This document shows, piece after piece, positions 33,953 through 64,000 of a stretch of DNA of 64,000 bases. Position numbers and translations under genes: made by a program. The DNA is from a virus. Its lineage: Duplodnaviria; Caudoviricetes. The stretch lies in the IMG/VR virus record IMGVR_UViG_3300049144_000095, positions 64,001 to 128,000 of that record; one strand, 5' to 3'. The notes under the pieces were generated by a model. The model was not told the origin of the DNA and searched no databases. It worked only from the letters and a program-made list of their open reading frames with translations. Numbering within the stretch: position 1 is the first letter of the stretch; each line of letters begins with the position of its first letter.

Positions 33953-34129
33953 ATGACGGTTTATCTCGCGAACGGCGGAACGCTTACGGTCCTGGCAAAT
34001 GGGACCGTGGAACTCCGCCGGAACGGACAGACAATGCGGGTGAGCGGGCGCGGCAGTCACCGCGCAACGGCGGATTGGGTCCGCTCCCTGGCGTTCGGCC
34101 GTGACGTTCGGTACGTCACGGCAGGCTGA
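33953..34129 (+). CDS. Small hypothetical protein, first of + strand array
   Basis: CCGGAAAGGGG leader; MTVYLANGG. Confidence 0.6.
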   Translation: MTVYLANGGTLTVLANGTVELRRNGQTMRVSGRGSHRATADWVRSLAFGRDVRYVTAG

Positions 34130-34178
34130 CAGTCGCTCCGTAAAGGCGGAGCGCGGGCATTCGGAAAGGGCAGGAACC

Positions 34179-35939
34179 ATGGGACGAACCTTTGTTGCAC
34201 TGAACAGCGACGGACAGCCGCGTATGTACGGGTACGCCCGGGGCGCGGGTCACGTCGTCCTGATCCCGGTGGACGCGATGAACGATCCTTTGGCGACGGG
34301 CGGCGTGCTGGAAACGCCGTGCGGCGGTAAGGGAGTGGACTCCGAACGGCTCACGGAGAAGTTCACCGGTGACAAGATGTGCACGCGTTGCGTTGCGTGG
34401 CTCGACTCCGACGGGGGCCGCAACGACGTCGAAGCGGCGCGGGAAGCGAAGTGGGACCGTGAGAACACGGGTCCGTCCCTCGCGGAGATCATGGGCGACC
34501 ACATCCTGATCACGCTTGACGGGGCGCGGGAGGTGAAGGGGCCGGACGCGCGGGAGGAGTCTGCCCCGGAGCCGGTCCGGGAGATCACCCGCGAGGAAGT
34601 GCGGGACCTTATCGGGCGCAGCAAGCGGGGCGCGGCCGTGCGGAAGCGCGAGGCGGCCGTAGAGCGGGAGCGGGAGCGGTTGGCCGCGCAGCGGAAGGCG
34701 CGGGAAGCGCGGGATGCTGCTGCGGAAGCGCGGGAGGAGTCTGCCCAGGAGTCGGAGCCGGTACAGGGTGAGCTGTGGGGCAAGACTCATGCGGAGATGC
34801 GGGCGGCGGTCGCAACCTTCTACGCGTCCGGTAAGCCTGTCCCGGCGGAAGTTGCCGCTCTGCCTGATCCGGCCGTGGTGCAGGTTCAGTGGTCCGGGAC
34901 GAACGGCGCGGGGGACACCGACTGGCGCGGATGCGAGGGTGCCGGTCCGGTGGCGGTCGTCAACGCGGAGCGGACGCACGGGAAGTGCCCGGCATGCAAC
35001 GCGTACATCGAATTGACGGACACCGAGGGGGAAGAGGACTTCCGCATCGGGTCGCACTACGAATACGGGGTCGCGGCCCCCGCCAACCCCCACATGTCGT
35101 CACAGTCGTTGGACGCCGTGGAACACGGGACGGTGCCCGGGTCCCCCGTGATCGCGAACAAGCGGCGCAAGGTCGAAGCACTGTGCAAGCGTTCTGACAA
35201 GGTGGCGCGCGGCGTCACCCAGGGCGGAGCGAAGCAGTGCCCGGAGTGCGCGCGGTCGGTGGAACTGTACAGGCGGGAGCGCACCGTCAAGGGCAAAGCG
35301 AAGGTGCAGTGGGTCTACCCGGAACACGTCGACTCGCGGGACACGTTCGGTCGGTCGGGAGCGGACGGCAAGGGTGAGCGCAAGGTCACGCCGCGCGGGA
35401 GTGGCGCGGACGCCGGTAAGGGCGCGCGGGATCACGGGAGTGTGAACGGCTCCGCGAACACGGGGGCCCACAACCTCCCGCCCGTCCAGCCCAAGAGCGG
35501 ATGGCTGGCCGTGGCCGGTACGTCGGTCCTCTCTGCCACGGTGCGTCCGGGTGTGGATCCGGTGGTGCAGGGCGAGTGGTGCCCGCTGTGCAAGGGTCCG
35601 AAGAACATCGTGCACCGTGGCAAGTCGCGCGGGTGGCGCCGTGACCACTCGAAGAAGATGGCGGCCTGGCACAAGGAGCAGGACGCAAAGCGCGCGGTCA
35701 AGCGGGAGCGGGACACGCAGCAGGGTAAGCGACTCCCCCAGGGTGCGCGTAAGGCCGCGCGGCAGGCTGCGAGCGTCGGGAGTTTCGCCGAAGGGACCGT
35801 GGCCGGTGTGGTGATGCGCGGGACGCGTCCGGAGGACACCCCCGCCGGGACGCCGGTCGGCAAGCGCACGCGACAGGTCAGCAAGCGCACCCCCGCCCCG
35901 GGTGAGGCGGAAGCGGTCAAGGGCGGCAAACGCAAGTAG
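34179..35939 (+). CDS. Large basic protein with several CxxC/His zinc modules
   Basis: CTRC, CPAC..H, CPEC..H, CPLC..H; Arg/Glu coiled segment. Confidence 0.7.
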   Translation: MGRTFVALNSDGQPRMYGYARGAGHVVLIPVDAMNDPLATGGVLETPCGGKGVDSERLTEKFTGDKMCTRCVAWLDSDGGRNDVEAAREAKWDRENTGPSLAEIMGDHILITLDGAREVKGPDAREESAPEPVREITREEVRDLIGRSKRGAAVRKREAAVERERERLAAQRKAREARDAAAEAREESAQESEPVQGELWGKTHAEMRAAVATFYASGKPVPAEVAALPDPAVVQVQWSGTNGAGDTDWRGCEGAGPVAVVNAERTHGKCPACNAYIELTDTEGEEDFRIGSHYEYGVAAPANPHMSSQSLDAVEHGTVPGSPVIANKRRKVEALCKRSDKVARGVTQGGAKQCPECARSVELYRRERTVKGKAKVQWVYPEHVDSRDTFGRSGADGKGERKVTPRGSGADAGKGARDHGSVNGSANTGAHNLPPVQPKSGWLAVAGTSVLSATVRPGVDPVVQGEWCPLCKGPKNIVHRGKSRGWRRDHSKKMAAWHKEQDAKRAVKRERDTQQGKRLPQGARKAARQAASVGSFAEGTVAGVVMRGTRPEDTPAGTPVGKRTRQVSKRTPAPGEAEAVKGGKRK

Positions 35940-36003
35940 CAGGCACGTTCACGCTCGGGGGCCCGGGACGGTCCGGGCCCCCTCCGGAGAGGACTCAGAA
36001 AAG

Positions 36004-36189
36004 ATGAGCTGGATTCAGAACCTGCCCGCGTACGCCATCCGTCGGGGCCTCGCGAACGGGGACTTCAGGCCCGAGCAGATCGCCGAGGCGGAGCGGCGCT
36101 TGACGGAACTCACGGTCGACCGGCCGCGCATGGTGATCGGTCTGGGGGTCCGGGACGACCGGCCACGCGGCGTCGTCGCCGTGGGCTGA
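36004..36189 (+). CDS. Hypothetical protein
   Basis: MSWIQNLP; array gene. Confidence 0.6.
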   Translation: MSWIQNLPAYAIRRGLANGDFRPEQIAEAERRLTELTVDRPRMVIGLGVRDDRPRGVVAVG

Positions 36190-36275
36190 CACGGCACAGC
36201 TCCGACCGCAGACAGGTGACGTGCGGGGGTCCGGGGACCGTTTCGGACCCCCGCCCCGGAAAGGGAGAGATACGC

Positions 36276-36731
36276 ATGGACGGTAAGGGTGAGACGCGGG
36301 TGCGGCGACGGTGGGCAGTGATGCCCCGGGACGGGAGCAGGCGGGTCGGCAGGGTGGAACGGTCGGTGTACCTGATCTGCGCGGTCGCGGTCGCGGGTGC
36401 GGCACTGCGGGTCGCGGCGCTGCTCTCCGGGACGGGAGCGGACACCGCCGGGGACACCACGGAGCGGGACCGGCAGATGATCATGACCGGTGGCTACCTG
36501 TCGTGGCAGGTGACGGACGGGTGTGCGCAGGGTCCGGTGGAGTGCAGCCGGGTACTGCGGGAGGCCAACGTCGGGGGTCGCGCGTACGGGGTGCGCGTGA
36601 TGAGCGACGGATCGCTGATCGGGCGGGACGACGATCCCGGTGCGGTCACGGTATCGGTGTCGGAGCTGCCCGCCGGTGACTGCTGGTGGGAGGTCAAGGC
36701 GGACGGTTCTACGGAACCGCTCTGCAAGTGA
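36276..36731 (+). CDS. Membrane-anchored hypothetical protein
   Basis: CCGGAAAGGGAG SD; one TM segment. Confidence 0.6.
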   Translation: MDGKGETRVRRRWAVMPRDGSRRVGRVERSVYLICAVAVAGAALRVAALLSGTGADTAGDTTERDRQMIMTGGYLSWQVTDGCAQGPVECSRVLREANVGGRAYGVRVMSDGSLIGRDDDPGAVTVSVSELPAGDCWWEVKADGSTEPLCK

Positions 36732-36828
36732 CGTGACGGAGATGCGCGCCGGGGTCGCCGGGCCGTGACGGTCCGGGGTCCCTGGGGTGCCGCTCGGAAG
36801 CGGTATTCATCGGAGAGGGGTAAGAGAC

Positions 36829-37245
36829 ATGGGCAACTACACGAACCGCGTTTCCCTGCTGCTGGCCGGGATCATCGCGTTGCTGATGGCTCCGTCGGGC
36901 GCGGCGGACGCGGCACCGATGGGCGGGACCCGCGTCGCGGCGGTGCGGTCCGTCTGTGAGACGGGGTACCGGGGGATGCCGGAGTACGACCGCTACTGCC
37001 TGGTCAACGGCACGGCGCGGGACGGGATGCGCCTGTGGTTCGCGGAGATCGACGGCAAGCGCTACAGCGTGCGGGAGCGGCGCGCGATGTGCCGGGACGC
37101 GCGGGCGACCGGCAGCATCCGGCGGGGTGCCATGGACCTGATGAACGACGTCGCCTACGACCGCTACCGCAACTACCGGGATGTCCTGCGGGTGACGGGC
37201 GCGGTCGCGGTGCTGGACTGCCGGGCGCTGGGCATCAAGGGCTGA
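36829..37245 (+). CDS. Secreted hypothetical protein
   Basis: Signal peptide ending ADA-A; 4 Cys. Confidence 0.65.
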   Translation: MGNYTNRVSLLLAGIIALLMAPSGAADAAPMGGTRVAAVRSVCETGYRGMPEYDRYCLVNGTARDGMRLWFAEIDGKRYSVRERRAMCRDARATGSIRRGAMDLMNDVAYDRYRNYRDVLRVTGAVAVLDCRALGIKG

Positions 37246-37262
37246 CGGTCGGGATCGGCTGA

Positions 37263-37299
37263 CGGGAGCGCCCCGGGGGACAACTCCGGGGCGCTGACG
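37263..37299 (+). repeat. Conserved intergenic hairpin element (GACG-tail class)
   Basis: CGGG-AGCGCCCCGG-loop-CCGGGGCGCT-GACG. Confidence 0.8.
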
Positions 37300-37384
37300 C
37301 CAACTTGTCGCGACGGACGTAAAGGCGTCCGGGACTTAATCCGGACCCGGCGGTTGCCGGGTCCGGCGGAAAGGAAAGTCACGC

Positions 37385-37645
37385 ATGGGAATCACCACGG
37401 TTGTCACCGATGGCGGAATGGTCTTCCTGGACGACGCGCCGTTGCCGGTGCGGTCGGAAGACGTCGAGCCGCGCGACTCGGCCACGGTGCCTTCGGCACT
37501 GCGGGACCACGCGCACACCGTTCTGCCGAACGAGCCGGGTGACTGGTGGACGGTCGGGGAGTTCCGGGACAGGGACGGGGAGTTCACCACGGCCGTTGCC
37601 CGGCGGATTCCGGACGGGGTCGTGCGGTACGGGACGTCCGACTAG
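37385..37645 (+). CDS. Hypothetical protein
   Basis: GCGGAAAGGAAAG leader. Confidence 0.65.
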   Translation: MGITTVVTDGGMVFLDDAPLPVRSEDVEPRDSATVPSALRDHAHTVLPNEPGDWWTVGEFRDRDGEFTTAVARRIPDGVVRYGTSD

Positions 37646-37697
37646 GCGCATTCGCGCGGGTCGGCGACAGGTTGTCGGAAACGGAGAGGAAACGGTC

Positions 37698-38036
37698 ATG
37701 GGTGTTTCGCTGAGCAAGCCGGGCGACGCGTTGGGCACGTGGAGCGAAGGGGTCGGGGTGAAGGGTGAGCCGGTGCGGGTCATGGCCGGACTGCCGGTCC
37801 GCAAGATCAGGGGGCCGGTGATCCGGGTGTCCGGAATGCGCTATGCGGGACGGAACATCGTGTCCGTCGCGGTGGAACCGGTGCTGGGTGACCGCATCGG
37901 ACAGTCCACGCTGATCGCGGCGGACGGGGTGGAGCACAGTTACGGAGACGTCGGGCCGCTGCTCCGTCTGCGGTTCTGGTGGCTGCGCCACACGATTGAC
38001 GCCGGAACCTACGCGGGCATCGGCCGGATGCGCTAA
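37698..38036 (+). CDS. Hypothetical protein
   Basis: ACGGAGAGG SD; MGVSLSKP. Confidence 0.6.
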   Translation: MGVSLSKPGDALGTWSEGVGVKGEPVRVMAGLPVRKIRGPVIRVSGMRYAGRNIVSVAVEPVLGDRIGQSTLIAADGVEHSYGDVGPLLRLRFWWLRHTIDAGTYAGIGRMR

Positions 38037-38044
38037 CCTGTTCG

Positions 38045-38056
38045 TGGCCTAGGCCG
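38045..38056. promoter_or_regulatory. Palindromic operator-like site
   Basis: TGGCCTAGGCCG; TAACCT at 38034-38039. Confidence 0.7.
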
Positions 38057-38078
38057 ACGGAAGGGAGAGGGGAACGGA

Positions 38079-38408
38079 ATGACGCAGAACATGTTGGGTG
38101 AAGCGGAGCGATTCTGGGACCAGGACGCGCGGGAGTTCGTCTCCGGGCACATCGTGGTGCGGGTCTCGTTCGCGATGGATCTGTCGAGGCAGTGCGCGGC
38201 CCGGGGCGTGATGCTCACGGACGACGGAACCGTGTACACGTGGACGATCCGGCGTCCCGGCCACGAGGACATGAACGGCTGCCGGAGGATCGCGACGCGG
38301 GTACGCGGGACGCTCCGGGACAACGCGTTCGGCCTGCTGGAGTTCGAGCGGAAGTACGTCGAGCCCGGCCTGTACGTGCGGTACGGCGCGGCGATCAGGG
38401 CGCTGTAG
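38079..38408 (+). CDS. Hypothetical protein
   Basis: ACGGAAGGGAG leader. Confidence 0.7.
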   Translation: MTQNMLGEAERFWDQDAREFVSGHIVVRVSFAMDLSRQCAARGVMLTDDGTVYTWTIRRPGHEDMNGCRRIATRVRGTLRDNAFGLLEFERKYVEPGLYVRYGAAIRAL

Positions 38409-38495
38409 GCACCGGGGAGTCGCGCTAGGGCGGCCGGGAGTCATTCCGGCCGCCCGGGGGTGTCGCCCGGCACTGAGGTACGGAAAGGGGAAGGC

Positions 38496-38966
38496 ATGTA
38501 CGAGGTTGTCCGACCGGAACGCAAGATCGGGACGTCGGACGGGTGGCGGACCGAGCCGGAACAGCGGCGCACGTTCCACACGGCGGCCGGTCTGTTCCGG
38601 TGGGCGCTGCGGGAGCGGGTGTTCAGTCACCGCACCGGCGGGGTGCCGTACCCGACCCGGTTCGATGACGTCCACCTGGGCGACCGGAACGGTGACGAGG
38701 GGTACGACTACCACCTGATCGACACGTTCACCCCGTGGGAGATCACGGGTGAGCATCTGGCCGCGATGCGCCGGGTGCAGCGCCGGTACGCGGAGATCGT
38801 TCACTACCTGCGGGAGGTCGAGCCGGGGTGGGAGCCGGACACGTCCGTGAGCCCGACCGGCAAGATCAGTTACGCGGACAACTCCGTGGTCCTGTACGAG
38901 ATCAGCAAGTACGGCGGGAAGCGGAGCCGGACGCTGGTCGCCCCGCACGGTGACGCCTGCTTCTGA
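38496..38966 (+). CDS. Hypothetical protein
   Basis: ACGGAAAGGGG SD; SYADNS motif. Confidence 0.7.
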   Translation: MYEVVRPERKIGTSDGWRTEPEQRRTFHTAAGLFRWALRERVFSHRTGGVPYPTRFDDVHLGDRNGDEGYDYHLIDTFTPWEITGEHLAAMRRVQRRYAEIVHYLREVEPGWEPDTSVSPTGKISYADNSVVLYEISKYGGKRSRTLVAPHGDACF

Positions 38967-39031
38967 CGGACCGGGACCGGCGGACGGGAGCGCCCCCGGG
39001 CGGGGCGTTCCAGCCTGCCTATCGCGGCAGG
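38964..39031 (+). repeat. Long-form hairpin element (two stems)
   Basis: TGA...GGCGGACGGGAGCGCCCC-loop-GGGGCGTTCCAG-CCTGCC-loop-GGCAGG. Confidence 0.85.
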
Positions 39032-39050
39032 TCGGAGAGGGGAACGGAAC

Positions 39051-39653
39051 GTGACGAACCGGACGGTTCGGTACGCGAAGGTGCGCACGGCGGGTGACTC
39101 GGACCGGAATGACGGGATCGGTGTTCAGTACGGAACGAACATCCCGCACCGGTCGATTCGAGATCTTCCGGTGGAGACATTCGCTTCAGTCATGCTGCGG
39201 GACAGGACGACGCGCGGCGCTTGCGCCAGGAAGGCAAGGGCGGAAAGGGGAGGAAAGGTGGGACAGATGCTTCAGGTTGTGGAACTGCGGGACGTACCGG
39301 CGCCGGGTGCGCCGCATCCGGAAAGCGGGTTCGAAGGATGGGTGCCGCTGGCGGACGCGATGGCGGCCGGGATCGACCTGTCGTACGTGACGGACGGGAT
39401 CGGCCCCCGGGTGCGCGGCATGGTCTACCGGGGCGGGTACCTGCGGAACGTCAGCACGGTGCACAACGTGTTCGTGTGCGTGGCTCCGGCGGACAGGGAC
39501 CCGGAGACGGGACGGCCCCGCCCCCGCCGTGCGGTGTGGTGGGATGTGGCGGAAGAGTCGGCCGACGACGACGGGCGGGTCCGGCGCCATATGACGTCAT
39601 GGCAGTACGACAGGGACAACAGGCCGTTGTTCATGGCGCTGAACGTCGGGTGA
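39051..39653 (+). CDS. Probable fusion: N-terminal paralog of 39743 gene plus second gene with own SD (start 39258/39267)
   Basis: MTNRTVRYAKVR resembles MANQTIKHAKVR; internal CGGAAAGGGGAGG SD at 39241. Confidence 0.6.
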   Translation: MTNRTVRYAKVRTAGDSDRNDGIGVQYGTNIPHRSIRDLPVETFASVMLRDRTTRGACARKARAERGGKVGQMLQVVELRDVPAPGAPHPESGFEGWVPLADAMAAGIDLSYVTDGIGPRVRGMVYRGGYLRNVSTVHNVFVCVAPADRDPETGRPRPRRAVWWDVAEESADDDGRVRRHMTSWQYDRDNRPLFMALNVG

Positions 39654-39719
39654 CAGAACCGGAGTCGGCGGACGGGAGCGCCCGGGATTCCGGGCGTTTC
39701 CACCTGCCTGCTGTGGCAG
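39651..39719 (+). repeat. Long-form hairpin element (two stems)
   Basis: GGCGGACGGGAGCGCCCGG-GATT-CCGGGCGTTTCCAC-CTGCC-loop-GGCAG. Confidence 0.85.
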
Positions 39720-39742
39720 CGACCTTCGGGAAGAGAGAAGAA

Positions 39743-39940
39743 ATGGCGAACCAGACGATCAAGCACGCGAAGGTGCGCGCGAAGGTGGACCCGGACCGCG
39801 AGGACGGGGTGAAGGGGCACGCGGGAGTCGGTGTCTACTTCGGGTCGAACGTCGCCCGCCGGGAGATGGAGGGGTTGCCGCTGGCCAAGTTCACGGCGCT
39901 TCTGCCCCGGGTGAAGACGACGCATGGGGTCTGTCACTGA
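39743..39940 (+). CDS. Small basic protein
   Basis: MANQTIKHAKVR...TTHGVCH. Confidence 0.65.
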   Translation: MANQTIKHAKVRAKVDPDREDGVKGHAGVGVYFGSNVARREMEGLPLAKFTALLPRVKTTHGVCH

Positions 39941-39965
39941 CGGAAGACAGGGAGAGGGGACGACG

Positions 39966-40205
39966 TTGGCAACCTGCTTGCCCCTGTATGCGCTGTACCT
40001 GTGCAGCGGATGGCTGATTCTGGATCGCGGGATCAAGTACCCGCCCGCCGCGCTGCGCAGAGAGGTTGCACTGAACGGCGTAGGGAGTTCACTGGGAGAC
40101 CGGTGGTTCAACGCCAGTCTGGCCGTTGCCTACCTGCTCGTCCTGCATGTGTGGCCGGTCGCCGTGTACCGGAAGCTGCGTCATGGACGCGTCGTAGGCA
40201 AGTGA
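39966..40205 (+). CDS. Small membrane protein
   Basis: TTG start after GGGAGAGGGG; two hydrophobic segments. Confidence 0.55.
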   Translation: MATCLPLYALYLCSGWLILDRGIKYPPAALRREVALNGVGSSLGDRWFNASLAVAYLLVLHVWPVAVYRKLRHGRVVGK

Positions 40206-40270
40206 CAGTCGGGATCGGCGGACGGGAGCGCCCGGGACTCCGGGCGTTCCAGCCTGTCAGTCGTGACAGG
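40203..40270 (+). repeat. Long-form hairpin element (two stems)
   Basis: GGCGGACGGGAGCGCCCGG-GACT-CCGGGCGTTCCAG-CCTGTCA-GTCG-TGACAGG. Confidence 0.85.
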
Positions 40271-40286
40271 AGGAAAGGGGAAGAGC

Positions 40287-40853
40287 ATGCGCACGCAGAC
40301 CACTCCGGTGCGGATGGAAACCAAGTACGGGGCGCTGTACATCGCCATCGAACCCGCCGACGAGTACAGCTACCGCGACACGGAGCGCGGGAACGTCATC
40401 GAGCTGCGGCCCCAGTTGCGGGTGTGCACCGCCCCGGAGTTCGAGGCGGACGCGGTGGCGGAGCACTGGACCATTCGGGGCCGGGCCTACACCATCCACG
40501 ACTTCATGATCTTCGACGCGCGGCGGGACGGGCGGTGGCACCGGCTCCGGTCGCCGTACATGGGAGGGTTCCGCAACGACCGCCGGGGTCCGGTGGAGTT
40601 CAGGACGGCGACGTTCGACCTGATGCGGGACACCGTGGTCACGGCGCTGGACGAGTTCGCGGCGCGTCACCCGGGATGGGAGGACGTCAGCCGCTACCTG
40701 CTGCACTCGAACAAGGCGACCGGCGCGGAGCTGGCGGCGATGGAGGCCCGTAGGGAGGCGGAGAGGTACGACGCGGAGGCGGCGGAGTTCCGGACGCGGG
40801 CGGAGCCCTTCGCGGCGGCCCTGTCGAAGAGCGGGATCAGCCTGACCGGCTGA
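40287..40853 (+). CDS. Hypothetical protein
   Basis: GGAAAGGGG SD. Confidence 0.7.
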   Translation: MRTQTTPVRMETKYGALYIAIEPADEYSYRDTERGNVIELRPQLRVCTAPEFEADAVAEHWTIRGRAYTIHDFMIFDARRDGRWHRLRSPYMGGFRNDRRGPVEFRTATFDLMRDTVVTALDEFAARHPGWEDVSRYLLHSNKATGAELAAMEARREAERYDAEAAEFRTRAEPFAAALSKSGISLTG

Positions 40854-40892
40854 CCGGACCCGGCGCGAACGGAAGCAAGGGAGGTGCGGGAC

Positions 40893-41084
40893 ATGGACGG
40901 AATGCGGCTCGAAGACGCTCCGCAATGGGTTCAGGATCTCGTGGTGGACAAGGCTCTCGGCTTCCTGGAGACGACCGAACAGGGCGAGCCGGTCCGGGTG
41001 GAAAGCGTAACGGACAGGATCGCAAAGATCCGGGTCGGAGAGTTCGTGTACACGGCCTTCCGCGCGGAGTGGTGGATCAGCTAG
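40893..41084 (+). CDS. Small hypothetical protein
   Basis: GGGAGGTG SD. Confidence 0.6.
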   Translation: MDGMRLEDAPQWVQDLVVDKALGFLETTEQGEPVRVESVTDRIAKIRVGEFVYTAFRAEWWIS

Positions 41085-41106
41085 GTACGGAAAGGGTGAG
41101 GAAACG

Positions 41107-41601
41107 ATGGACCTGATGCAGATGGCGGGTCACCTGTCACTGGAGTTCGGGGTCACGATGGAGGGGCCGTTCGGCGGTCCGCACATGCGAACCGTGCGGC
41201 TGTGGCTGCCGAACCGGCGCGGGGTGTCCCTGCTGGTCCGCGCGGGACACCACGACCCCGGAACGGCGGAGTTGCTGGTATTCCGGGAGAAGCTGCCGGA
41301 CCCGGACGTGATCTACCAAGGGATGACGCCGTGGCGGGAGGACTACTCGACGGTCGTCACGATCGACAGCCTGACGGTGGACATGGACAAGGCGCGTGCG
41401 GCGCTGCGGATCCTGCGGGAGCTGCCGGAGATCGACGTGCGGGACATGCGGGACACGCGGGAGCTGCGTTCGGCGGGGTTCGTCCACTACGGACACAGCA
41501 CCACGGCGTGCGGGAACCTGTGGCCGAACGACACCGTGACGGAGCACATCAAGGGCATCCGGTGCCTGCCGTGCATGGTGGAAGTGCACCGGCCGGTCTG
41601 A
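41107..41601 (+). CDS. Hypothetical protein with C-terminal H-C..CxxC zinc motif
   Basis: VHYG...TACG...IRCLPC. Confidence 0.7.
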   Translation: MDLMQMAGHLSLEFGVTMEGPFGGPHMRTVRLWLPNRRGVSLLVRAGHHDPGTAELLVFREKLPDPDVIYQGMTPWREDYSTVVTIDSLTVDMDKARAALRILRELPEIDVRDMRDTRELRSAGFVHYGHSTTACGNLWPNDTVTEHIKGIRCLPCMVEVHRPV

Positions 41602-41632
41602 TCCGGGCGAACGGAAGGGAGGGAGAGGGAAC

Positions 41633-41851
41633 GTGGCGGCATGGGACAAGATCACCCTGGAGGGTGAACACGGCCAGTACCAGACCAGGGTGGCGGAGCT
41701 GGACCTGATGATCATGCGCTACCTGCCCGCATCCGTGGAGGACTTGCGGGACCTGATCCGAGAGCGCCAGGGGGACCCCGACTACAACGTGTCCACAGTC
41801 ACGGAAGGTCTCATGATCCTGGCCGAACTGGACGGATACGCCATCAACTAG
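41633..41851 (+). CDS. Small hypothetical protein
   Basis: ACGGAAGGGAG leader. Confidence 0.65.
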   Translation: MAAWDKITLEGEHGQYQTRVAELDLMIMRYLPASVEDLRDLIRERQGDPDYNVSTVTEGLMILAELDGYAIN

Positions 41852-41870
41852 AACGGTCTGGGCGGTGATC

Positions 41871-41906
41871 TTCGGGGGCGTTCCGCTCTGCGGGACGTGC
41901 CCCGTG
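41871..41906 (+). repeat. Conserved intergenic hairpin element
   Basis: TTCGGG-stem-loop-CCCGTG. Confidence 0.75.
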
Positions 41907-41952
41907 GGTTCCCGGTCGGGGACACGGGTGATGAAAGGGAGTGAAGTAGAGG

Positions 41953-42480
41953 GTGCGGACCTACGGATACAGGGTCGGCGTTACGTCTCTGGACATGGAT
42001 CCCGAGACCAGCCTGGTCAAGCGTCTGGAGTTCAAGGCGCCGGACCGACATGCGGCTGAGCGCATGATCGACGTGTGGGCGGCGGTGGAACGCAAGACGA
42101 TCACGTCCCGGGTGCTGCTCGCTGACGGGGTCACGTTCCTGGAGGCCGGGAAGTTGCGGATCACCGGTCTCGCCATGGAACTTTCGAACATGTTCAAGGC
42201 GTCCGTCACCGGACCGTTCGAGTTCGGGTACGGCAGTGCGCCGGGCTGGGCGGTCCGCGTGATCATGCGGAACGGGTACGGCGTGAGCATCGCGACGGGC
42301 GGCCCGCACAAGAACGACCCGCCGCCGGTGATCGAGTTCACCACCTGCCACGACGACGGGACGTACGTGCGGTGGGACGTCTGCCCGGACGTGCTGATGG
42401 GCGGGCAGCGCGGGACCGAGGACGGCAGTACGGACCTGGACGAGATCGTCGCGGTCATGCGCAAGCTGCCGCAACCCTGA
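41953..42480 (+). CDS. Hypothetical protein
   Basis: NGYGVSI motif; array gene. Confidence 0.7.
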   Translation: MRTYGYRVGVTSLDMDPETSLVKRLEFKAPDRHAAERMIDVWAAVERKTITSRVLLADGVTFLEAGKLRITGLAMELSNMFKASVTGPFEFGYGSAPGWAVRVIMRNGYGVSIATGGPHKNDPPPVIEFTTCHDDGTYVRWDVCPDVLMGGQRGTEDGSTDLDEIVAVMRKLPQP

Positions 42481-42510
42481 CGGTAACGAACGGGTTACAC
42501 TCTGCGGGAA

Positions 42511-42522
42511 CGGCCTAGGTCA
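42511..42522. promoter_or_regulatory. Palindromic operator-like site
   Basis: CGGCCTAGGTCA; TAGAGT at 42538-42543. Confidence 0.7.
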
Positions 42523-42580
42523 TTGTCATTTCACCGCTAGAGTCTGCACTGGGATCGCGGAAAGACGGAAAGGGAAGAAC

Positions 42581-42940
42581 GTGAAACTGAACCTGCGGCA
42601 TTCGGACAACGCGGGTACGGAACTGTGGCGTCAGTACCAGGACGTCCTGAGGGCGGCGAGCGCGGCCGACCAGCCGGGAACGCTTCCGACGGGCGCGAGC
42701 AAGGTCACCGCTACCCCGGCGGGCGGGGAGCTGAGCCAGCTTCCGCCCGAATGGCAGAAGGAAGCCGCGCACGCCTCGCACGTCATCTACCACTACGGAA
42801 CACCGATCGCCTGGATCGACGTCCGGGACAACGTGTGGGTCGTGCCGCCGGAGAAGTACAGCCCGGGAACCACCGGCGCCCAGAACCGCATCCGCGACCG
42901 GCTCGGGAACACGCCGTACCGCACGGCGCCGGTGGGCTGA
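42581..42940 (+). CDS. Conserved phage early-type hypothetical protein
   Basis: IYHYGTPIAW...WVVP..KYS.GTT..QNRIR. Confidence 0.7.
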   Translation: MKLNLRHSDNAGTELWRQYQDVLRAASAADQPGTLPTGASKVTATPAGGELSQLPPEWQKEAAHASHVIYHYGTPIAWIDVRDNVWVVPPEKYSPGTTGAQNRIRDRLGNTPYRTAPVG

Positions 42941-42953
42941 CCGGTCGGTGACG

Positions 42954-42989
42954 TTCGGGAGCGCCCCGTGGAAGCGGGGCGTTCCAGTG
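42954..42989 (+). repeat. Conserved intergenic hairpin element
   Basis: TTCGGGAGCGCCCCG-loop-CGGGGCGTTCCAGTG. Confidence 0.85.
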
Positions 42990-43017
42990 CATTACCGGAC
43001 GGAATGGGAGAAGAGAA

Positions 43018-43323
43018 ATGATGGACGGCATCCCGATGGTGCAGCTCAAGGACGGCGCCTCGGTTCCGAAGGTGACCGTGACGACGGCACTCATGAACCT
43101 TCAGCACCTCCGCAACACCAACCCGGTCGCCCTGTTCGAGCTGGTGGAGATCGCCCGGAACCCCGGTCACGTGCCGTTCCCCGGGACGAAGGACGCACTC
43201 CAGAAGATGAGCATGCTTGACGGGTTGGGGAAGATCCACGACGACACCCGGAAGGTCATCGTCAACGCCATCCCGGGGGACCTCATGGAGCTGCGGATCG
43301 TCGACCCGATGACCGGCGAGTAG
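43018..43323 (+). CDS. Hypothetical protein
   Basis: ACGGAATGGGAG leader. Confidence 0.7.
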   Translation: MMDGIPMVQLKDGASVPKVTVTTALMNLQHLRNTNPVALFELVEIARNPGHVPFPGTKDALQKMSMLDGLGKIHDDTRKVIVNAIPGDLMELRIVDPMTGE

Positions 43324-43332
43324 GGGACGGAC

Positions 43333-43521
43333 ATGACGGACGCGGAGTACGTGGGGCGGGAGTTCCGTAAGGCGCTCAAGGACCGTGACGGTGGGCCGGT
43401 CGAGACGGTCCGCGTCAAGGCGGAGGGGCCGACGGGGAGTTCCCGCTGGGTCACCGTGAGCGTGGGGACGTGGGAGCGGATGATCGCCGCCGGGGTGGCG
43501 GCGATCGGGAAGAGTGAGTGA
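43333..43521 (+). CDS. Small hypothetical protein
   Basis: VKAEGPTGSSRWVTV; weak resemblance to 55123 gene. Confidence 0.6.
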   Translation: MTDAEYVGREFRKALKDRDGGPVETVRVKAEGPTGSSRWVTVSVGTWERMIAAGVAAIGKSE

Positions 43522-43958
43522 TGGGGCACCGGGTCACACAGCGGCACGTCGAAGAGGTCAACCGGGGCGACCTGATCCAGGTTGCGGGCGGGTACGTCAT
43601 CGCGGACACCCTGAGTGCGCGCTCCGCGTCCTCGGCGGACCTCACACCCGTGCCGTTCTGGTATGACACGGACGGCGAGAGGCACTACCCGAACCCGACG
43701 GACAACACGCTGACGGTGGTGGACGACCCACCCTTCCAGACGCACGCGCACGGCCGGAGCGCCGGGAAGGACGCCGCCGGGCATGCGCTGGACAAGGCGG
43801 ATGCGGCGCTGTGCCCGGACGGGCGACGGTCCGGGACGCTGGACAAGTTGGAGTCCGGCACGGCCCTTGCGGCTGTCACGTGCAAGCCGTGCCGCCGGAT
43901 CATCGGGCTCGTCGGCCAGGCGCGCGGGGAGCGCAAGCGCGAGAGCAACGGGATCTGA
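43518..43958 (+). CDS. Hypothetical protein with H-C..TCxxC zinc motif
   Basis: THAH...ALC...VTCKPC. Confidence 0.65.
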   Translation: MMGHRVTQRHVEEVNRGDLIQVAGGYVIADTLSARSASSADLTPVPFWYDTDGERHYPNPTDNTLTVVDDPPFQTHAHGRSAGKDAAGHALDKADAALCPDGRRSGTLDKLESGTALAAVTCKPCRRIIGLVGQARGERKRESNGI

Positions 43959-43960
43959 TC

Positions 43961-44140
43961 ATGGCGGAGACCTGGGACGGCCGGAACACCATGGTCTGCA
44001 CGTACGGGGGCGGCATTTCCGTGCTGACCACGGGCGGCGGGAAGCCTAGCGAAAGCGTCCAGTACACAGCGGAGGAGGCCCTGAAGCTGGCTGAGGAGAT
44101 CGCCGACGTAGCGCGTCGACAGCTCAGCGATCAGGGCTGA
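43961..44140 (+). CDS. Small hypothetical protein
   Basis: MAETWDG; coupled. Confidence 0.6.
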   Translation: MAETWDGRNTMVCTYGGGISVLTTGGGKPSESVQYTAEEALKLAEEIADVARRQLSDQG

Positions 44141-44154
44141 CGGAAGGGGGAGGC

Positions 44155-44358
44155 ATGGACGGACTGACGGCGGAGGAAGTTGCCCGGGAGATCCGGGCGG
44201 AGGTGGAGATCGCGGACGAGGCGGACGACTTGGCCGCGCACCGCGCCCTGCGGATGCTCTCGAACAGGTTCAGCCGCTTGTTCATGGAGCGGAACCCCGG
44301 GTTCAGCGTCCCTGTGTTCGAGCGGGAGTGCGGACTGGTCGAGGACCGGGATTCATGA
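44155..44358 (+). CDS. Small conserved phage-type protein
   Basis: NPGFSVPVFEREC (NPxF...F..AC pattern). Confidence 0.65.
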   Translation: MDGLTAEEVAREIRAEVEIADEADDLAAHRALRMLSNRFSRLFMERNPGFSVPVFERECGLVEDRDS

Positions 44359-44654
44359 CGGTCCGGCTGGTCGCCGTGGATCCCTGGGACTGCGGCTGCA
44401 ACGAGTGCTGTACGGGCGAGTACGTTGCGCTCCGTTTCGCGACGGACGAGAACGTCGCGGACATGCTGGCCGGAAGGCTGGCGAACCACCTGAACAACGG
44501 GACGGAACTGGACGTCACGACCACGTACCGGGTCGATTCGACCGGCAGGCGCACGGAGTTGGCGGCGGAGCGGGTCACGGTCATCTACACGCACTACGAC
44601 GGGCAGAGCAAGACGTGGGAGCCGGACCCGTACCGTGCGGGCCTGATCAAGTAA
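44355..44654 (+). CDS. Conserved actinophage-type protein
   Basis: VDPWDCGCNECCTGEYVAL. Confidence 0.65.
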   Translation: MTVRLVAVDPWDCGCNECCTGEYVALRFATDENVADMLAGRLANHLNNGTELDVTTTYRVDSTGRRTELAAERVTVIYTHYDGQSKTWEPDPYRAGLIK

Positions 44655-44676
44655 GACGGAAAGGGAGGAAACAGAA

Positions 44677-45159
44677 ATGGCGCAGTTCACGGAGACGCCG
44701 GGCCGCGAACGCAACCCCCTCGGCGGGCGGGAGGCCGACGGCTTCGATCAGTGGTTGCGGGAGGCCACGCAGCTCATGGGGGAGTCGGAGGACAGCCTCC
44801 GAGAGGAACTGCCCCTGGGTAACCCCATGCGCTACGTGGCCGTCGAGGCCTCCGCTCACTACGGGCGGATGCTGGGTGCCTGGAAGGAAGTCAGCAAGGG
44901 TCACGGGGGCGACGGGGCGCGGGACCGGTTCGAGGTCAACCTGATCTCGGCGGTGATGAGCGCCCACGGTGCGGCGGAGTACGCCCGGAGCCGGAGGTAC
45001 GGTCCGGACGACACCACGGCGGGCGGGCGGCCGATGGCGGACGTCGGGGCGGAGTACCTGCGGGCGTGCACGATCCTCGCGAAGTACGTGGGCGTCAACG
45101 AGCTGGACGTGCACGCCTGCGGCGGGGACCAGGCCAAGCTGTCCGCCCTGCGGGCCTGA
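44677..45159 (+). CDS. Hypothetical protein
   Basis: ACGGAAAGGGAGG SD. Confidence 0.7.
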   Translation: MAQFTETPGRERNPLGGREADGFDQWLREATQLMGESEDSLREELPLGNPMRYVAVEASAHYGRMLGAWKEVSKGHGGDGARDRFEVNLISAVMSAHGAAEYARSRRYGPDDTTAGGRPMADVGAEYLRACTILAKYVGVNELDVHACGGDQAKLSALRA

Positions 45160-45175
45160 CGGAAGGGGCGGAACG

Positions 45176-45412
45176 GTGGGCGTCGAATACACCGACCCGG
45201 GCAAGGTGTCGGAGGTCAGCGTCACACAAGTGCCGGTCAGTGGACAGACGGCGACCAGGTACGGGGCGAAGATCCCGACCTGTCACATGATCAAATACGA
45301 CGGTGCGTGGCGGAGGGTCTATGTCATGAACTACTCAACCCCGTACGTCAGGGTCACGGGACGCGATGTGGTGCTGGACTCGGAGACTCAGCACCGGCTG
45401 AACGTGATCTGA
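45176..45412 (+). CDS. Conserved phage early-type protein
   Basis: YGAKIPTCHMIKY...WRRVYV..YS. Confidence 0.65.
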   Translation: MGVEYTDPGKVSEVSVTQVPVSGQTATRYGAKIPTCHMIKYDGAWRRVYVMNYSTPYVRVTGRDVVLDSETQHRLNVI

Positions 45413-45425
45413 CGGAGCGGCGATC

Positions 45426-45464
45426 TTCGGGGCGGCACGGGGGGTGACTCCGTGTGGCTCCGTG
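45426..45464 (+). repeat. Conserved intergenic hairpin element
   Basis: TTCGGG-stem-loop-TCCGTG, then GGTCGGACGATCC shared with 46617 copy. Confidence 0.75.
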
Positions 45465-45497
45465 GGTCGGACGATCCGGACGGAAAGGAGTGGGGGC

Positions 45498-45689
45498 ATG
45501 GCTGACGGCACGGACAAAATCAAGATCGAGACGGCGGAGGACGGAACGCTCACGCTCTCGGGGTTGACCCCGAATCAGGGGTGGCTGATCTACAGCGGAC
45601 TCTGGCAGATGCTGACGGAGCAGGACGACGAGGAAGCTGGGCAGCTCGGCGAAGCCATCTCGGCCCAGCTCGGAGTCAACGGCCACTGA
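45498..45689 (+). CDS. Small acidic protein
   Basis: ACGGAAAGGAG SD. Confidence 0.65.
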   Translation: MADGTDKIKIETAEDGTLTLSGLTPNQGWLIYSGLWQMLTEQDDEEAGQLGEAISAQLGVNGH

Positions 45690-45712
45690 GGCCGACGGAA
45701 AGGAGTGGGAAC

Positions 45713-46114
45713 GTGGCCTACGTGATTGAAGTCAACAAGCGGGACGTCTCGCGGTACGCGGAGGAGTGTGAGTTCAAGAACGACGACGACCACGAGTGCG
45801 ACGACCAGTGCCGCTACCTGGACGGGGACGTGCGGGAGATTCGCGACTACGGCAAGGCGGAGTACGAGTACGACCCGGACGACGCGGAGCTGTACGGGAC
45901 GCCGGTCCAGTGGGCGTCGGAGTACCTGGGAGGCCACAACTTCCCGGCTCTGAACAAGCCGCAGATCCACGACGGCAAGGTCAGCGAGCACGAGTGGCTG
46001 TCGGCCAGCGACCCGCACCCGTATCAGGAACACGAGACGGAGTACAGCATCTACCTGCGGGGGGACTGGACGCCGGAAGAGCGGGCGCAGGTCTTCGAAG
46101 CGGTCGGGCACTGA
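45713..46114 (+). CDS. Highly acidic protein
   Basis: EECEFKNDDDHECDD; ACGGAAAGGAG SD. Confidence 0.7.
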   Translation: MAYVIEVNKRDVSRYAEECEFKNDDDHECDDQCRYLDGDVREIRDYGKAEYEYDPDDAELYGTPVQWASEYLGGHNFPALNKPQIHDGKVSEHEWLSASDPHPYQEHETEYSIYLRGDWTPEERAQVFEAVGH

Positions 46115-46125
46115 GGGGGTTACGG

Positions 46126-46602
46126 GTGAAGCACACGTACCTGTACCCCCTGAAGGACGGGGAGCTGCCGCTCTGGCGGATGGCTCGCACGGGGGCGGCC
46201 GACCTGTTCGATTCCCCCCAGGAGGAACCGCCGAGCGTCATGTGGGAGCACTACATGCGGCTCAGCGACGCTCTGGGGGCCGCCCGGGACGAACTGCACA
46301 AGCGGCTGGAGTCCCGGGACCGCATCTGCATCGGGCGGCACTACATGATCCCCGGTTCACTGTGCGAGGTGGCACAGAGTCACGAGAGAGACGCGGATCA
46401 GGTGGTCCGCTACGTCACCCGGGAACTGTGGGACGCACCGCTGTTCTACGGGATCACGTGGGCCAACGTGGTCGGCACGCTCCAGAGGGCGGCGGGGCAG
46501 GACGGCCGTGACGAGTGGGCGGAGATCCAGGGGTTCTGCGCAGTCAACAGGATGTCGAAGGACAACGGGAAGGGCATTCGCGTGGTCCCGGTGTGGATGT
46601 GA
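46126..46602 (+). CDS. Hypothetical protein
   Basis: MKHTYLYPL start re-called. Confidence 0.6.
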   Translation: MKHTYLYPLKDGELPLWRMARTGAADLFDSPQEEPPSVMWEHYMRLSDALGAARDELHKRLESRDRICIGRHYMIPGSLCEVAQSHERDADQVVRYVTRELWDAPLFYGITWANVVGTLQRAAGQDGRDEWAEIQGFCAVNRMSKDNGKGIRVVPVWM

Positions 46603-46616
46603 AGGGACCGACGTAC

Positions 46617-46654: not shown

Positions 46655-46685
46655 GGCCGGACGATCCAAGCGGAAGGGAGAGAAC

Positions 46686-55040: not shown

Positions 55041-55052
55041 TGGCCTAGGCCG
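55041..55052. promoter_or_regulatory. Palindromic operator-like site
   Basis: TGGCCTAGGCCG abutting extended -10 TGCTATCGT (55033-55041). Confidence 0.75.
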
Positions 55053-56941: not shown

Positions 56942-57175
56942 ATGTCGGACGTGAAGTACCCGGGGTGCATGGTCGAGCTGTTGGACGAGATCGACGGCAA
57001 CGCGGTCATCATCTTCCGGAAGGTTCGCAAGGAGCTGATCAAGTACCTGACGGAAGAGCAGGGGTGGAGTCGCGAGGAGGCCGTGAAGGAGGGTGACGCC
57101 TTCCAGGCCGAAGCCATCTCCGGTGACTACGAGGACATGCTCGCCACGTGCCGCCGCTGGGTGGACGTCATCTGA
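56942..57175 (+). CDS. Conserved mobile-element small protein
   Basis: DGNA..I...VRK.L...EA.SGDYE.ML..C..WV pattern. Confidence 0.75.
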   Translation: MSDVKYPGCMVELLDEIDGNAVIIFRKVRKELIKYLTEEQGWSREEAVKEGDAFQAEAISGDYEDMLATCRRWVDVI

Positions 57176-62618: not shown

Positions 62619-62647
62619 TGGACGAGAGTGGCCTAGGTCAGTAGGAT
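62619..62647 (+). promoter_or_regulatory. sigma70-type promoter with palindromic operator in its spacer
   Basis: TGGACG-17 nt-TAGGAT; TGGCCTAGGTCA at 62629-62640. Confidence 0.75.
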
Positions 62648-62687
62648 GCGAAGGCCCCGGATCAATCAGGGCTCGGGAGGGAGAAGT

Positions 62688-63026
62688 ATGCAGAACGACA
62701 GGCCCGCCGACTTCTACGACGTCTGCGCCAGGCAGGAGGGTGTGCGCAGTCAGGTGTTCCGGTTCGAGGGGACGGAGCAAGGCTTCCTTCGGGCCAAGAA
62801 GTATGCACGGGACTACAACAAGTCCCTGCGGGACGCCATGGGCCTCACAGAGGTCGACCTGGAGACCGAGATCAGCAGCCTGGATTTCAATCGGCCCGAC
62901 CAGTACGAGAAGGCCCTGACGATCGAGTCCTACCGAGACCACTCGGCCTCGGTCCGCCCCGCCTACGAGATCCCCGTCATCAAGGACGGCGATCCGCTGC
63001 CGACCGACTACCCGCACGACTTCTGA
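62688..63026 (+). CDS. Hypothetical protein
   Basis: GGGAGGGAG SD. Confidence 0.7.
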   Translation: MQNDRPADFYDVCARQEGVRSQVFRFEGTEQGFLRAKKYARDYNKSLRDAMGLTEVDLETEISSLDFNRPDQYEKALTIESYRDHSASVRPAYEIPVIKDGDPLPTDYPHDF

Positions 63027-63043
63027 CCCCGGAGGGACAAGAC

Positions 63044-63355
63044 ATGCAGGAAGCCGATCACTACCTCATCCACGTCCGCCACGAGGACGCTCAAGGCAAG
63101 GCCGAGTGGCGCGTGACCATGCCGCACAACGAGGTCGGCGCTGCGGTGCGGGAAGCTCTCCAGTTCCAGAGCAAGGGGCTCGTCACCTTCATCACCGGAC
63201 GGAATGACGCGGCGGAGATCCTATTCGTCATGCCGGTTGCGGCGTACCCGATCGCCGGTGTCGTCAACTTCGACACCGGCATCTTCGGCTGCCCGGACGA
63301 GCGCACCCGGGATGCGGTGATCGCATTCGCCGACAAGGTGGGCTGGACCGCCTGA
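63044..63355 (+). CDS. Hypothetical protein
   Basis: GGAGGG SD. Confidence 0.65.
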   Translation: MQEADHYLIHVRHEDAQGKAEWRVTMPHNEVGAAVREALQFQSKGLVTFITGRNDAAEILFVMPVAAYPIAGVVNFDTGIFGCPDERTRDAVIAFADKVGWTA

Positions 63356-63624
63356 TGGTCACGGCGAACGTGGACATGCAGGAGCCGACCAGCGGCATCA
63401 TCCTGGTCACCGGCAATCACGGCTACCCGGAATGCCCGCAGGCCCTTCTCGGCAAGGACGGCGAGGAGTGGTACGTCGAGGACTCCTACGGCGACCTCGA
63501 CAGGGACGGCAAAACCGCCCGGAAGGACTTCTTCGAGAAGGCCAGGACCCGGAAGGGGGCAATCCGGAAGTGGCTTGCCCACCTGGGGCTGGAGGCCGAG
63601 ATCAAGACGGAGCGCGAGTACTGA
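63355..63624 (+). CDS. Hypothetical protein
   Basis: TGATG overlap. Confidence 0.65.
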   Translation: MVTANVDMQEPTSGIILVTGNHGYPECPQALLGKDGEEWYVEDSYGDLDRDGKTARKDFFEKARTRKGAIRKWLAHLGLEAEIKTEREY

Positions 63625-63674
63625 ATCGCGCGATCACGCAAGTGATGGCATTCGAGACGGAAAGAGAGAAGAGC

Positions 63675-64000
63675 GTGCACCTCAGCAAGAAGCTGGCATC
63701 CGACATCCTCACTGGCCTGATGAACGGCACGTACGAGGCGGAGGCGGACGAACCCGCCCTGGGCGGCGAGGACTTCCAGGACTGGATCAACGAAATCGCC
63801 GACCTCAAGGACGAACACGGTCCGGACATGGTCGTGGCGCTGGCCGAGTTCGCCGAGAGCTGGCTGCACACCGTCATCCGGTCCCACGAGGTCGACGACT
63901 TCGCCGAGCAGCACTTCAAGGGATCCGGCCACTCCAAGGGCGAGGTGCTGAAGAACTACGCCAGGCAGGACGACTTCGGCCTGGGCAAGCTCTGGGCCAT
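63675..64000 (+). CDS. Acidic protein, possible ArdA-like antirestriction protein (truncated by window end)
   Basis: ACGGAAAGAGAG leader; WINEIADL.DEHG...DDFAEQHFKGSGHSKGEVLKNYA resembles ArdA F.E.Y.G...S..DFA..Y core. Confidence 0.4.
   Translation, partial: MHLSKKLASDILTGLMNGTYEAEADEPALGGEDFQDWINEIADLKDEHGPDMVVALAEFAESWLHTVIRSHEVDDFAEQHFKGSGHSKGEVLKNYARQDDFGLGKLWA

Follow-up and report, generated by a model that had tools for sequence, protein, structure and literature searches.

A large one-strand array of small genes beside the predicted genome end of a jumbo Streptomyces phage: a candidate early, host-directed region

A one-strand array of small genes

We analysed a 64,000-nucleotide stretch of viral DNA (hereafter the window), which comprises bases 64001-128000 of one 251,159-bp IMG/VR virus contig (IMGVR_UViG_3300049144_000095; completeness rating 100%). 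The analysis concerned a long array of small, co-oriented genes, here called the arm, which begins at position 33953 and runs to the window edge and beyond; all positions are those of the window unless they are marked as genome positions. As the G+C content of 65% made raw lists of open reading frames (ORFs) useless (341 ORFs in the window), genes were called with a codon-usage log-odds score combined with non-overlap dynamic programming. The caller placed 75 genes in 33953-64000, every one of them on the plus strand, and selected no minus-strand ORF, so that the roughly 75 co-oriented plus-strand genes described by the first-pass annotation, which was made from the letters of the window alone, were recovered. 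The minus-strand ORFs with a high G+C content at the third codon position (GC3) carried the mirrored GC1/GC2/GC3 pattern that is typical of antisense shadows. The array was not confined to the 30 kb over which the first-pass annotation had described it, since the run continued past the window edge. An uninterrupted same-strand run of 144 genes occupied genome positions 98224-155334 and, when two small minus-strand calls were allowed, the full arm contained ∼155 plus-strand genes and extended to genome position 160736, a length of 62.8 kb. It thus made up a quarter of the genome and 37% of its genes, and the window carried the first 75 of them. The next longest same-strand run elsewhere in the genome had 37 genes.

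The genes were small and closely packed. The lengths of 70 of the 74 profiled proteins were between 50 and 200 aa (median 112 aa; one below 50 aa, three above 200 aa), in agreement with the earlier description of the products. The 73 junctions included ten 4-nt start/stop overlaps, four other overlaps, 23 gaps of 1-30 nt and 25 gaps of more than 60 nt, and the coding density of the arm was 0.90. A Shine-Dalgarno (SD) core of at least 4 nt preceded 72% of the arm genes in the window versus 64% of the genes elsewhere. The GC skew rose from about -0.03 to +0.16 at 34000, and the coding strand was 57% purine. A hydrophobic segment was present in 5% of the arm proteins compared to 13% elsewhere, so that the products are mostly soluble. 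A richness in Cys, which had been noted for many products, was limited to a minority: 11 of 74 proteins had at least four Cys residues, and two or more CxxC motifs were present in two of 74. At the start of the arm, about ten products (34224-40205) were mostly basic, with isoelectric points (pI) of 8.8-10.5, and most of the later ones were acidic. As only three paralog pairs were present inside the arm, the array is not an expanded gene family.

Genome end, leader and regulatory elements

The two contig ends overlapped by 156 nt (genome 1-156 and 251004-251159, 99.4% identity), which indicates a circular assembly with an arbitrary contig start and a unique genome length of ∼251.0 kb; IMG/VR classes the record as linear and without end repeats. 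A tape-measure protein, a family A DNA polymerase, a DnaB helicase and a primase were encoded elsewhere in the genome, and the terminase, portal and major capsid proteins shared 78-90% identity with their counterparts in Streptomyces phage Satis; these large proteins identify a tailed phage. When 10 kb were compared with phage records by megablast, no match was obtained, and the closest described relatives, the cluster BM phages Satis, JustBecause and Frankenweenie, surfaced by distant blastn only. The BM phages are siphoviruses with genomes of 184-200 kb, prolate heads, defined ends and direct terminal repeats (DTRs) of 1,038-1,049 bp (PMC6687918, PMC10652959). Judged from its sequence, the genome is that of a 251-kb jumbo Streptomyces siphophage with a predicted direct terminal repeat, related to cluster BM.

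The DTR was predicted by homology at 31236-32415, where the circular assembly would contain one collapsed, non-coding copy of ∼1.18 kb. The blastn alignments to the left termini of Satis and Frankenweenie stopped exactly at coordinate 1 of these phages, which corresponds to window position 32415. The terminal motif TTTCTCTCGCTCGAAACC (minus strand at 32415) was conserved in Satis, Frankenweenie and JustBecause, with the Frankenweenie version reading TTTCTCACACTCGAAACC, and the inner edge of the repeat was marked by coordinates 1039-1088 of the three BM phages, which aligned at 31197-31235. The entire 2.8-kb non-coding hub ahead of the arm was collinear with the right end of Satis. The predicted arrangement therefore places the arm-side virion end at ∼31236, followed by the repeat, a 1.54-kb leader and the first ORF at 33953. 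The array does start right after the non-coding hub, as the first-pass annotation had stated, and as the hub contains the predicted repeat and genome end, the arm would start 1.5 kb inside the physical end and read inward. This position adjoining the genome end resembles that of the early regions of T5, SPO1 and L5. Metagenome contigs covering 30001-50000 showed no decisive sign of a terminal repeat, as such contigs give no read starts and only a flat depth.

No gene was called in the non-coding leader (32416-33952, 1.54 kb, plus strand), which is a candidate promoter or leader-RNA region. It contained one operator palindrome (32828-32837, see below), short repeated motifs and two ∼100-120-nt units arranged in tandem (∼33310-33530), and two of its blocks (33167-33379 and 33565-33702) were conserved with the right end of Satis. 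The tandem units lie near the conserved blocks and could be part of a leader RNA comparable to the Pleft transcript that is abundant in L5. No Rfam family matched 30500-64000 at E ≤ 0.1. The leader is followed by the first ORF of the arm (33953-34129, plus strand, 58 aa), which had a weak coding score and was conserved, with 72% nucleotide identity to Satis gene 337.

A 12-bp palindrome with the consensus TGGCCTAGGCCA, which we regard as a putative operator, was found at 34 sites in the genome, 31 of them intergenic. The hexamer CCTAGG occurred only 36 times versus 86 times expected. Eleven of the sites were located in the arm, including a variant within a hairpin at 58996, and 23 outside it; the 31.7-kb virion module had none versus 4.3 expected. 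Within the window, a palindrome GGCCTAGGCC at 38046-38055 preceded the start codon at 38079 by 24 nt. The copy at 42512-42521 (GGCCTAGGTC) occupied a 100-nt gap and was followed by TAGAGT, and the copy at 62630-62639 (GGCCTAGGTC) was followed by TAGGAT. At 55042-55051 the -10-like hexamer TATCGT (of the form TANNNT) abutted the 5' side of the palindrome, which makes this site a candidate internal rightward promoter. In total, TANNNT abutted the palindrome at nine flanks versus 0.08 expected, and the five of these in the arm all faced in the arm direction. This arrangement would fit host-type -10 elements with the operator lying over the start site. Two paralogous genes for GntR-family helix-turn-helix proteins flanked the contig junction (genome 210-944, minus strand, and 250398-251111, plus strand), and a palindrome was present 24 nt upstream of the former. 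Searches of the genome for sigma region 2 and for a T7-type RNA polymerase gave no hit.

The arm was further punctuated by hairpins. The most conspicuous were three near-identical ∼65-nt hairpins (38965, 39653 and 40203) that accompanied two paralogous genes (39051-39653 and 39743-39940, one of the three paralog pairs of the arm); the region 38964-40270 on the plus strand is a duplicated hairpin-plus-gene cassette. An intergenic hairpin at 42956-42990 (plus strand) had conserved flanks (TTCGGGAG ... TTCCAGTG) and variable stems, and further copies of this family were located at approximately 38985, 39673, 40223, 48008, 49636, 50444 and 61401. The family occupied ∼8-12 gaps and, like the duplicated cassette, was restricted to that portion of the arm which lies in the window; a genome-wide scan for CGGGAG hairpins was noisy, and only the intergenic arm copies formed a clear family. 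Conserved flanks and compensating stems suggest an RNA or DNA element that is recognized by a protein instead of plain terminators. When all co-directional gaps of 40-160 nt were considered, a minimum free energy (MFE) z-score below -2 relative to shuffled sequences was found for 47% of those in the arm versus 48% of those outside. The hairpins and operators which had been proposed to organize the array into blocks are thus real elements, yet they do not set the arm apart, as the remaining genome is just as rich in structured gaps and carries 23 of the 34 operator sites. The arm is cut into ∼5-kb blocks by elements that are also present in the remaining non-structural genome.

Conservation and content of the arm

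To trace the origin of the array, the arm proteins were compared with those of Satis. Fifty-two of the 155 arm proteins (21 of 73 in the window) matched Satis proteins in strict collinear order, over a Satis span that ran from 183.5 kb down to 138.5 kb. Their identity was mostly 30-70% (rough median 48%, range 28-72%). In the virion module, by comparison, nearly every gene was common to both phages and the proteins were 60-90% identical; the arm thus evolves faster than the virion module, both in sequence and in gene content. The Satis counterpart consists of genes 337 down to 235, which lie on one strand, start 1.5 kb inside the right repeat and are nearly all annotated as 'hypothetical protein'. 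The two arms share strict collinearity throughout as well as the 58-aa ORF and the large zinc-ribbon protein ∼1.5 kb inside the right repeat, and JustBecause and Frankenweenie, like Satis, also have an arm on one strand with almost all genes labelled 'hypothetical'. These comparisons indicate that the arm is homologous to the right arm of the cluster BM phages. Unlike in Satis, the arm comprises ∼155 genes in 62 kb versus ∼103 genes in 44-46 kb, the genome measures 251 kb versus 184-200 kb, and two thirds of the arm genes have no Satis homolog.

Closer relatives were available as metagenomic and genomic contigs. A sibling phage was present as a separate 252,977-bp contig in the assembly of the isolate Streptomyces sp. 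NPDC058947 (GCA_042741515.1, JBHYKT010000008.1), and 34 of the 56 genes in 34224-57188 had collinear homologs on it (28-84% identity). Seven IMG/VR relatives, with contigs of 69-260 kb, were also compared. All seven had 2.9-3.9 kb without a gene of at least 70 aa upstream of the first large gene, and their order was repeat-like sequence, gene-poor stretch, an ORF of 59-63 aa at the place matching 33953 (in five of the seven) and a large first protein. In the 10 kb that follow the homolog of the 571-aa protein encoded at 34224, the seven relatives had 19-25 genes each, and all 151 were on the same strand. Eleven genes, which start at 34224, 36276, 36829, 37698, 38079, 42581, 43518, 44355, 48077, 50531 and 51186, formed a backbone that was kept in nearly all nine relatives. 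The arm is composed of a collinear conserved backbone, to which about a third of its genes belong, and of variable genes inserted in between. One of the variable genes, at 43961-44140 (59 aa), was 95% identical to its homolog in one IMG/VR relative, while its neighbours there reached only ∼35-50%, which indicates a recent exchange of this mini-cassette.

The genome sequence was found in five soil-metagenome DNA runs. The source metagenome also carried a second, diverged relative at a depth 5-8 times lower (contigs on 30001-50000); its contig matched only patches of 44356-46922, which suggests a different gene content of its arm. On the other side of the predicted repeat, the interval from the Satis gene 2 homolog to the repeat (13115-31161) was filled by ∼18 kb of mostly minus-strand small genes, and these had no counterpart at the left end of Satis. 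The expansion relative to the BM phages therefore seems to be concentrated beside both termini.

The proteins of the arm in the window (74 profiled) were searched against known families. No solid Pfam match was obtained for any of the 74 (best E 8e-4), none fell below E 0.006 in NCBIfam, and none matched a PADLOC family, which bears out the initial impression that most products have no recognizable enzyme motifs. Seven of the 74 matched PHROGs, all of them families with no assigned function, and three of these genes (45176-45412, 46929-47354 and 56942-57175) belong to widespread families. The 81 proteins past the window added four annotations, namely a DarG-type macrodomain, a ProQ C-terminal-like domain, a phosphatase PHROG and a weak HNH match. 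Two Phage_ProQ_C_like domains were present in the genome (154475-154789, in the arm, and 225872-226195), which may hint at control of these transcripts at the RNA level. Virion structural and housekeeping families, which the first-pass annotation had set against its own interpretation, were looked for with Pfam and NCBIfam, and none was found among the 155 arm proteins; the arm is without virion, replication or lysis genes.

The DarG-like macrodomain gene was located beyond the window edge, at genome 141018-141464 (from window coordinate 77018). It matched the NCBIfam family antitoxin_DarG (E 1.2e-40) and the PADLOC family DarG (E 1.1e-42), and Pfam Macro was found at genome 141072-141401 with 41 bits, over the cut-off. 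The DarT family PF14487 had no match in the phage genome and none in 14 control genomes either, so that its silence does not establish the absence of DarT. Orphan DarG-like antitoxins of phages neutralize DarTG defence (PMC11825919, PMC11481870, PMC13309987). Like these published antitoxins, the arm macrodomain is free-standing; unlike them, it is assigned from profile matches alone and is a single gene out of 155, outside the window. The proposal that the array is a reservoir of anti-defence factors therefore gained one candidate beyond the window, while the 74 window proteins yielded no family match that would speak for it.

Structure prediction followed by Foldseek, which had been suggested for every product, was applied to two of them, and neither matched an entry of the PDB. 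The largest arm gene (34224-35939, plus strand) encodes a protein of 571 aa with a pI of 9.3 and four CxxC pairs, whose family comprises 45 cluster representatives and was conserved in all nine relatives compared. Its AlphaFold model had a mean predicted local distance difference test score (pLDDT) of 72 and a predicted template modelling score (pTM) of 0.28, and consisted of small confident domains and a long helix with disordered linkers. No PDB match was found with Foldseek at E ≤ 0.001; among the top weak rows were ribosomal proteins with zinc ribbons and a subunit of RNA polymerase I. A wide VIA-align search with this model was filled by the long helix and was uninformative on the other domains, and the protein had no match in Pfam, NCBIfam or PADLOC. 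The second model was that of the acidic 141-aa protein encoded at 46929-47354 (plus strand, phrog_5644), which showed an alpha/beta fold (pLDDT 94, pTM 0.85). No PDB match was obtained for it (Foldseek E > 0.4, VIA-align best Z 5.1), and its fold matches in BFVD and Atlas were uncharacterized phage proteins only. Rows such as AcrIF24 or Acb4 had Z ∼4, which is at noise level.

The remaining 73 genes of the window, as derived from the gene calls and the conservation matrix, are small and fill 36004-64000 on the plus strand, with the last cut by the window edge. This last gene starts at 63675 (63675-64000 in the window, continuing to window coordinate 64142) and encodes an acidic protein of 155 aa with a net charge of -23. 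An identity as ArdA (PF07275) was examined for this protein and found no support at the sequence level: no Pfam family matched it at E ≤ 0.01, ArdA was absent among the Pfam families at E ≤ 10 for the protein and its three homologs, a four-sequence profile searched against the PDB at E ≤ 10 found a ribosomal protein only and no ArdA chain, and the Atlas feature scores were at most 0.76.

Proposed role of the arm and alternative explanations

On balance, we lean towards the arm being a host-directed early gene set at the physical genome end, which would be read by the host polymerase and controlled by the operator. That the arm proteins match almost nothing known is in line with a probably early, host-directed function. 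In the proposed mechanism, host RNA polymerase would read the arm from the promoter region in the leader and from internal promoters, in which a TANNNT -10 element abuts the 12-bp palindromic operator. One of the two GntR-family proteins probably binds the operator and would later shut these promoters off, while strong GC hairpins after stop codons may punctuate or stabilize the transcripts. The terminase gene lies near the genome end opposite the arm. If packaging starts at the terminase-proximal end, the arm would be packaged last and enter the cell first, as is the case in lambda and T7 for the end that lies away from the terminase. The mostly soluble small proteins of the arm would then act early, in host takeover and counter-defence. 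We infer the early timing from the terminase at the opposite end, the candidate host-type promoters together with the lack of virion genes, the operator-free virion module and the analogy with L5 and D29. The action of the products on the host is suggested by a single supporting case, the putative orphan DarG-like macrodomain.

In the cluster A mycobacteriophages L5 and D29, transcription of the right arm by 15 min is driven from Pleft, an early promoter at the right genome end that has a non-coding leader, and repressor sites are present at the promoter and in many intergenic regions throughout the genome (PMC5712189). The arm resembles the Pleft arm of L5 in its dozens of end-proximal, inward-reading small genes behind a non-coding leader and in having the virion genes, which L5 expresses late, on the other arm. 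The palindrome occurs in the leader (one site), in the arm (11 sites) and, for 31 of its 34 sites, between genes; being a palindrome, it has no orientation. Unlike the present phage, with which it shares no sequence homology, L5 is temperate, its arm is several-fold smaller, and its stoperators are 13-mers that lack symmetry and follow the direction of transcription; the site of the present phage is a 12-bp palindrome, and its ends are predicted 1.2-kb DTRs.

A takeover module in SPO1 and a pre-early region in T5 likewise consist of terminal, small uncharacterized genes that the host polymerase reads first and that serve host shut-off and counter-defence. These modules sit within terminal repeats of ∼13 kb and ∼10 kb and have ∼24 and 17 genes, respectively. 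The arm, unlike them, lies outside a short non-coding repeat (31236-32415), begins 1.5 kb beyond it and is six to nine times larger, so that it does not share the location of genes inside a long repeat that characterizes T5 and SPO1. No SPO1 or T5 homologs were detected in the arm, which is not known to have an injection-stop signal. The hyperplastic regions of T4-type phages are reportedly (Arbiol and co-workers, 2010) built from promoter-early stem-loop (PeSL) cassettes. The arm has in common with them small ORFans separated by stem-loops, a strong variability among relatives and duplicated cassettes; it differs in that it has no recognizable promoter per unit and that structured gaps are equally common elsewhere in its genome.

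Several results weigh against an early, host-directed role. Among the window proteins, no anti-restriction, anti-CRISPR, anti-toxin-antitoxin or takeover family was found with Pfam, NCBIfam or PADLOC. Many of the arm proteins are indeed acidic, as the first-pass annotation had emphasized (39 of 74 with a pI below 5.5), but this is not distinctive, as the acidic share was 53% compared to 48% in the remainder of the genome. The operator and hairpins are common to other non-structural genes and so do not mark a separate temporal class. The terminal repeat is predicted from homology and not from read pile-ups or doubled depth. A scan of 30500-50000 for E. coli-type consensus promoters gave no site, a relaxed scan for TTGAC-N17-TANNNT gave only seven sites genome-wide, and no canonical -35/-10 pair was found in the leader or arm. 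Lastly, a search of sequencing runs found the genome sequence in no RNA run, and literature searches turned up no BM phage transcriptome.

We also considered that the arm could be a permissive cargo region, in which dispensable accessory genes of mixed function and timing, such as exclusion genes, regulators, unusual enzymes and selfish cassettes, have gathered near the genome end over about ten promoter blocks because insertions are tolerated at this place, without a coherent programme for early functions or takeover. This explanation is possible, but we regard it as rather unlikely. It would account for the two thirds of arm genes with no Satis homolog, for the 39% of genes in the compared interval that are absent even from the 253-kb sibling, for the recently exchanged gene at 43961 (95% versus ∼35-50% for its neighbours) and for the duplication of a hairpin-plus-gene cassette. 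Several widespread PHROG families are also found where Satis has no gene, the few annotated members (macrodomain, ProQ-like domain and phosphatase) are mutually unrelated, and the operator sites are the same as those on other gene sets. A loose collection of cargo is, however, difficult to reconcile with a collinear backbone of ∼50 genes kept across 30-70% protein divergence from Satis, with the 11 or more genes of the first 17 kb that are kept in nearly all nine relatives, or with the perfectly uniform orientation at a coding density of 0.90. The position at the genome end and the conserved leader were invariant in all relatives, and both modelled proteins contained confidently predicted domains.

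The same operator network can be read differently, as serving a quiescent or carrier state and not lytic takeover; the arm genes of a resident phage genome would then be held off or partly expressed under GntR control, in the manner of the immunity and host-benefit genes of a lysogen. The occurrence of the 252,977-bp sibling as its own contig in a Streptomyces isolate assembly fits this view, and a repressor/stoperator network is called to mind by the 34 operator sites together with the two genes of the GntR family (PMC5712189). However, such a contig among those of an isolate can also stem from a chronic or contaminating infection, the BM phages have been described as having no integrase or repressor and as unlikely to be temperate (PMC10652959), and no integrase or partition family was found among the arm proteins with Pfam and NCBIfam. 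We therefore consider a carrier function improbable. That the array is an artefact of gene calling, with many calls in long open frames of high-GC DNA not being real, is very improbable. A few calls were weak (33953 with a score of 8.9; 39966 with a TTG start and a score of 14; 59072 with 29 aa), but the codon-usage scores were positive throughout, the scores and GC3 values listed were typical of the long genes of the genome, and 72% of the genes had an SD core. In addition, one third of the genes had collinear homologs at the protein level, the two tested products contained confidently folded domains, and even the weakest call, 33953, was conserved in relatives.

The reading of the arm as an early, host-directed gene set can be extended, although what follows is tentative and appears to us clearly less likely than the basic proposal. 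The arm may be the first part of the genome to enter the cell; at least ten of its ∼155 products, for example that of 46929-47354, may be takeover or counter-defence proteins of undescribed families and folds; and a DasR-like palindrome network may switch the arm off and let the phage persist quietly in Streptomyces cultures, a possibility raised by the sibling contig of the isolate assembly.

Large terminal arms of small uncharacterized genes are already familiar to phage specialists, and the notable points here are the size of the arm, which takes up a quarter of the genome, and its near-total lack of annotation. The defence repertoires of Streptomyces are dense and unusual, yet hardly any of the proteins with which phages of these hosts counter them have been recognized. 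Together with its BM homologs, the arm holds well over a hundred conserved, probably folded proteins that lack annotation, sited where well-studied phages keep their host-directed early genes. By anchoring the arm to the genome end and by splitting its backbone from the variable genes, this reservoir is made testable, for which the cultured relatives Satis, JustBecause and Frankenweenie and the Streptomyces isolate assembly that carries a near sibling are available.

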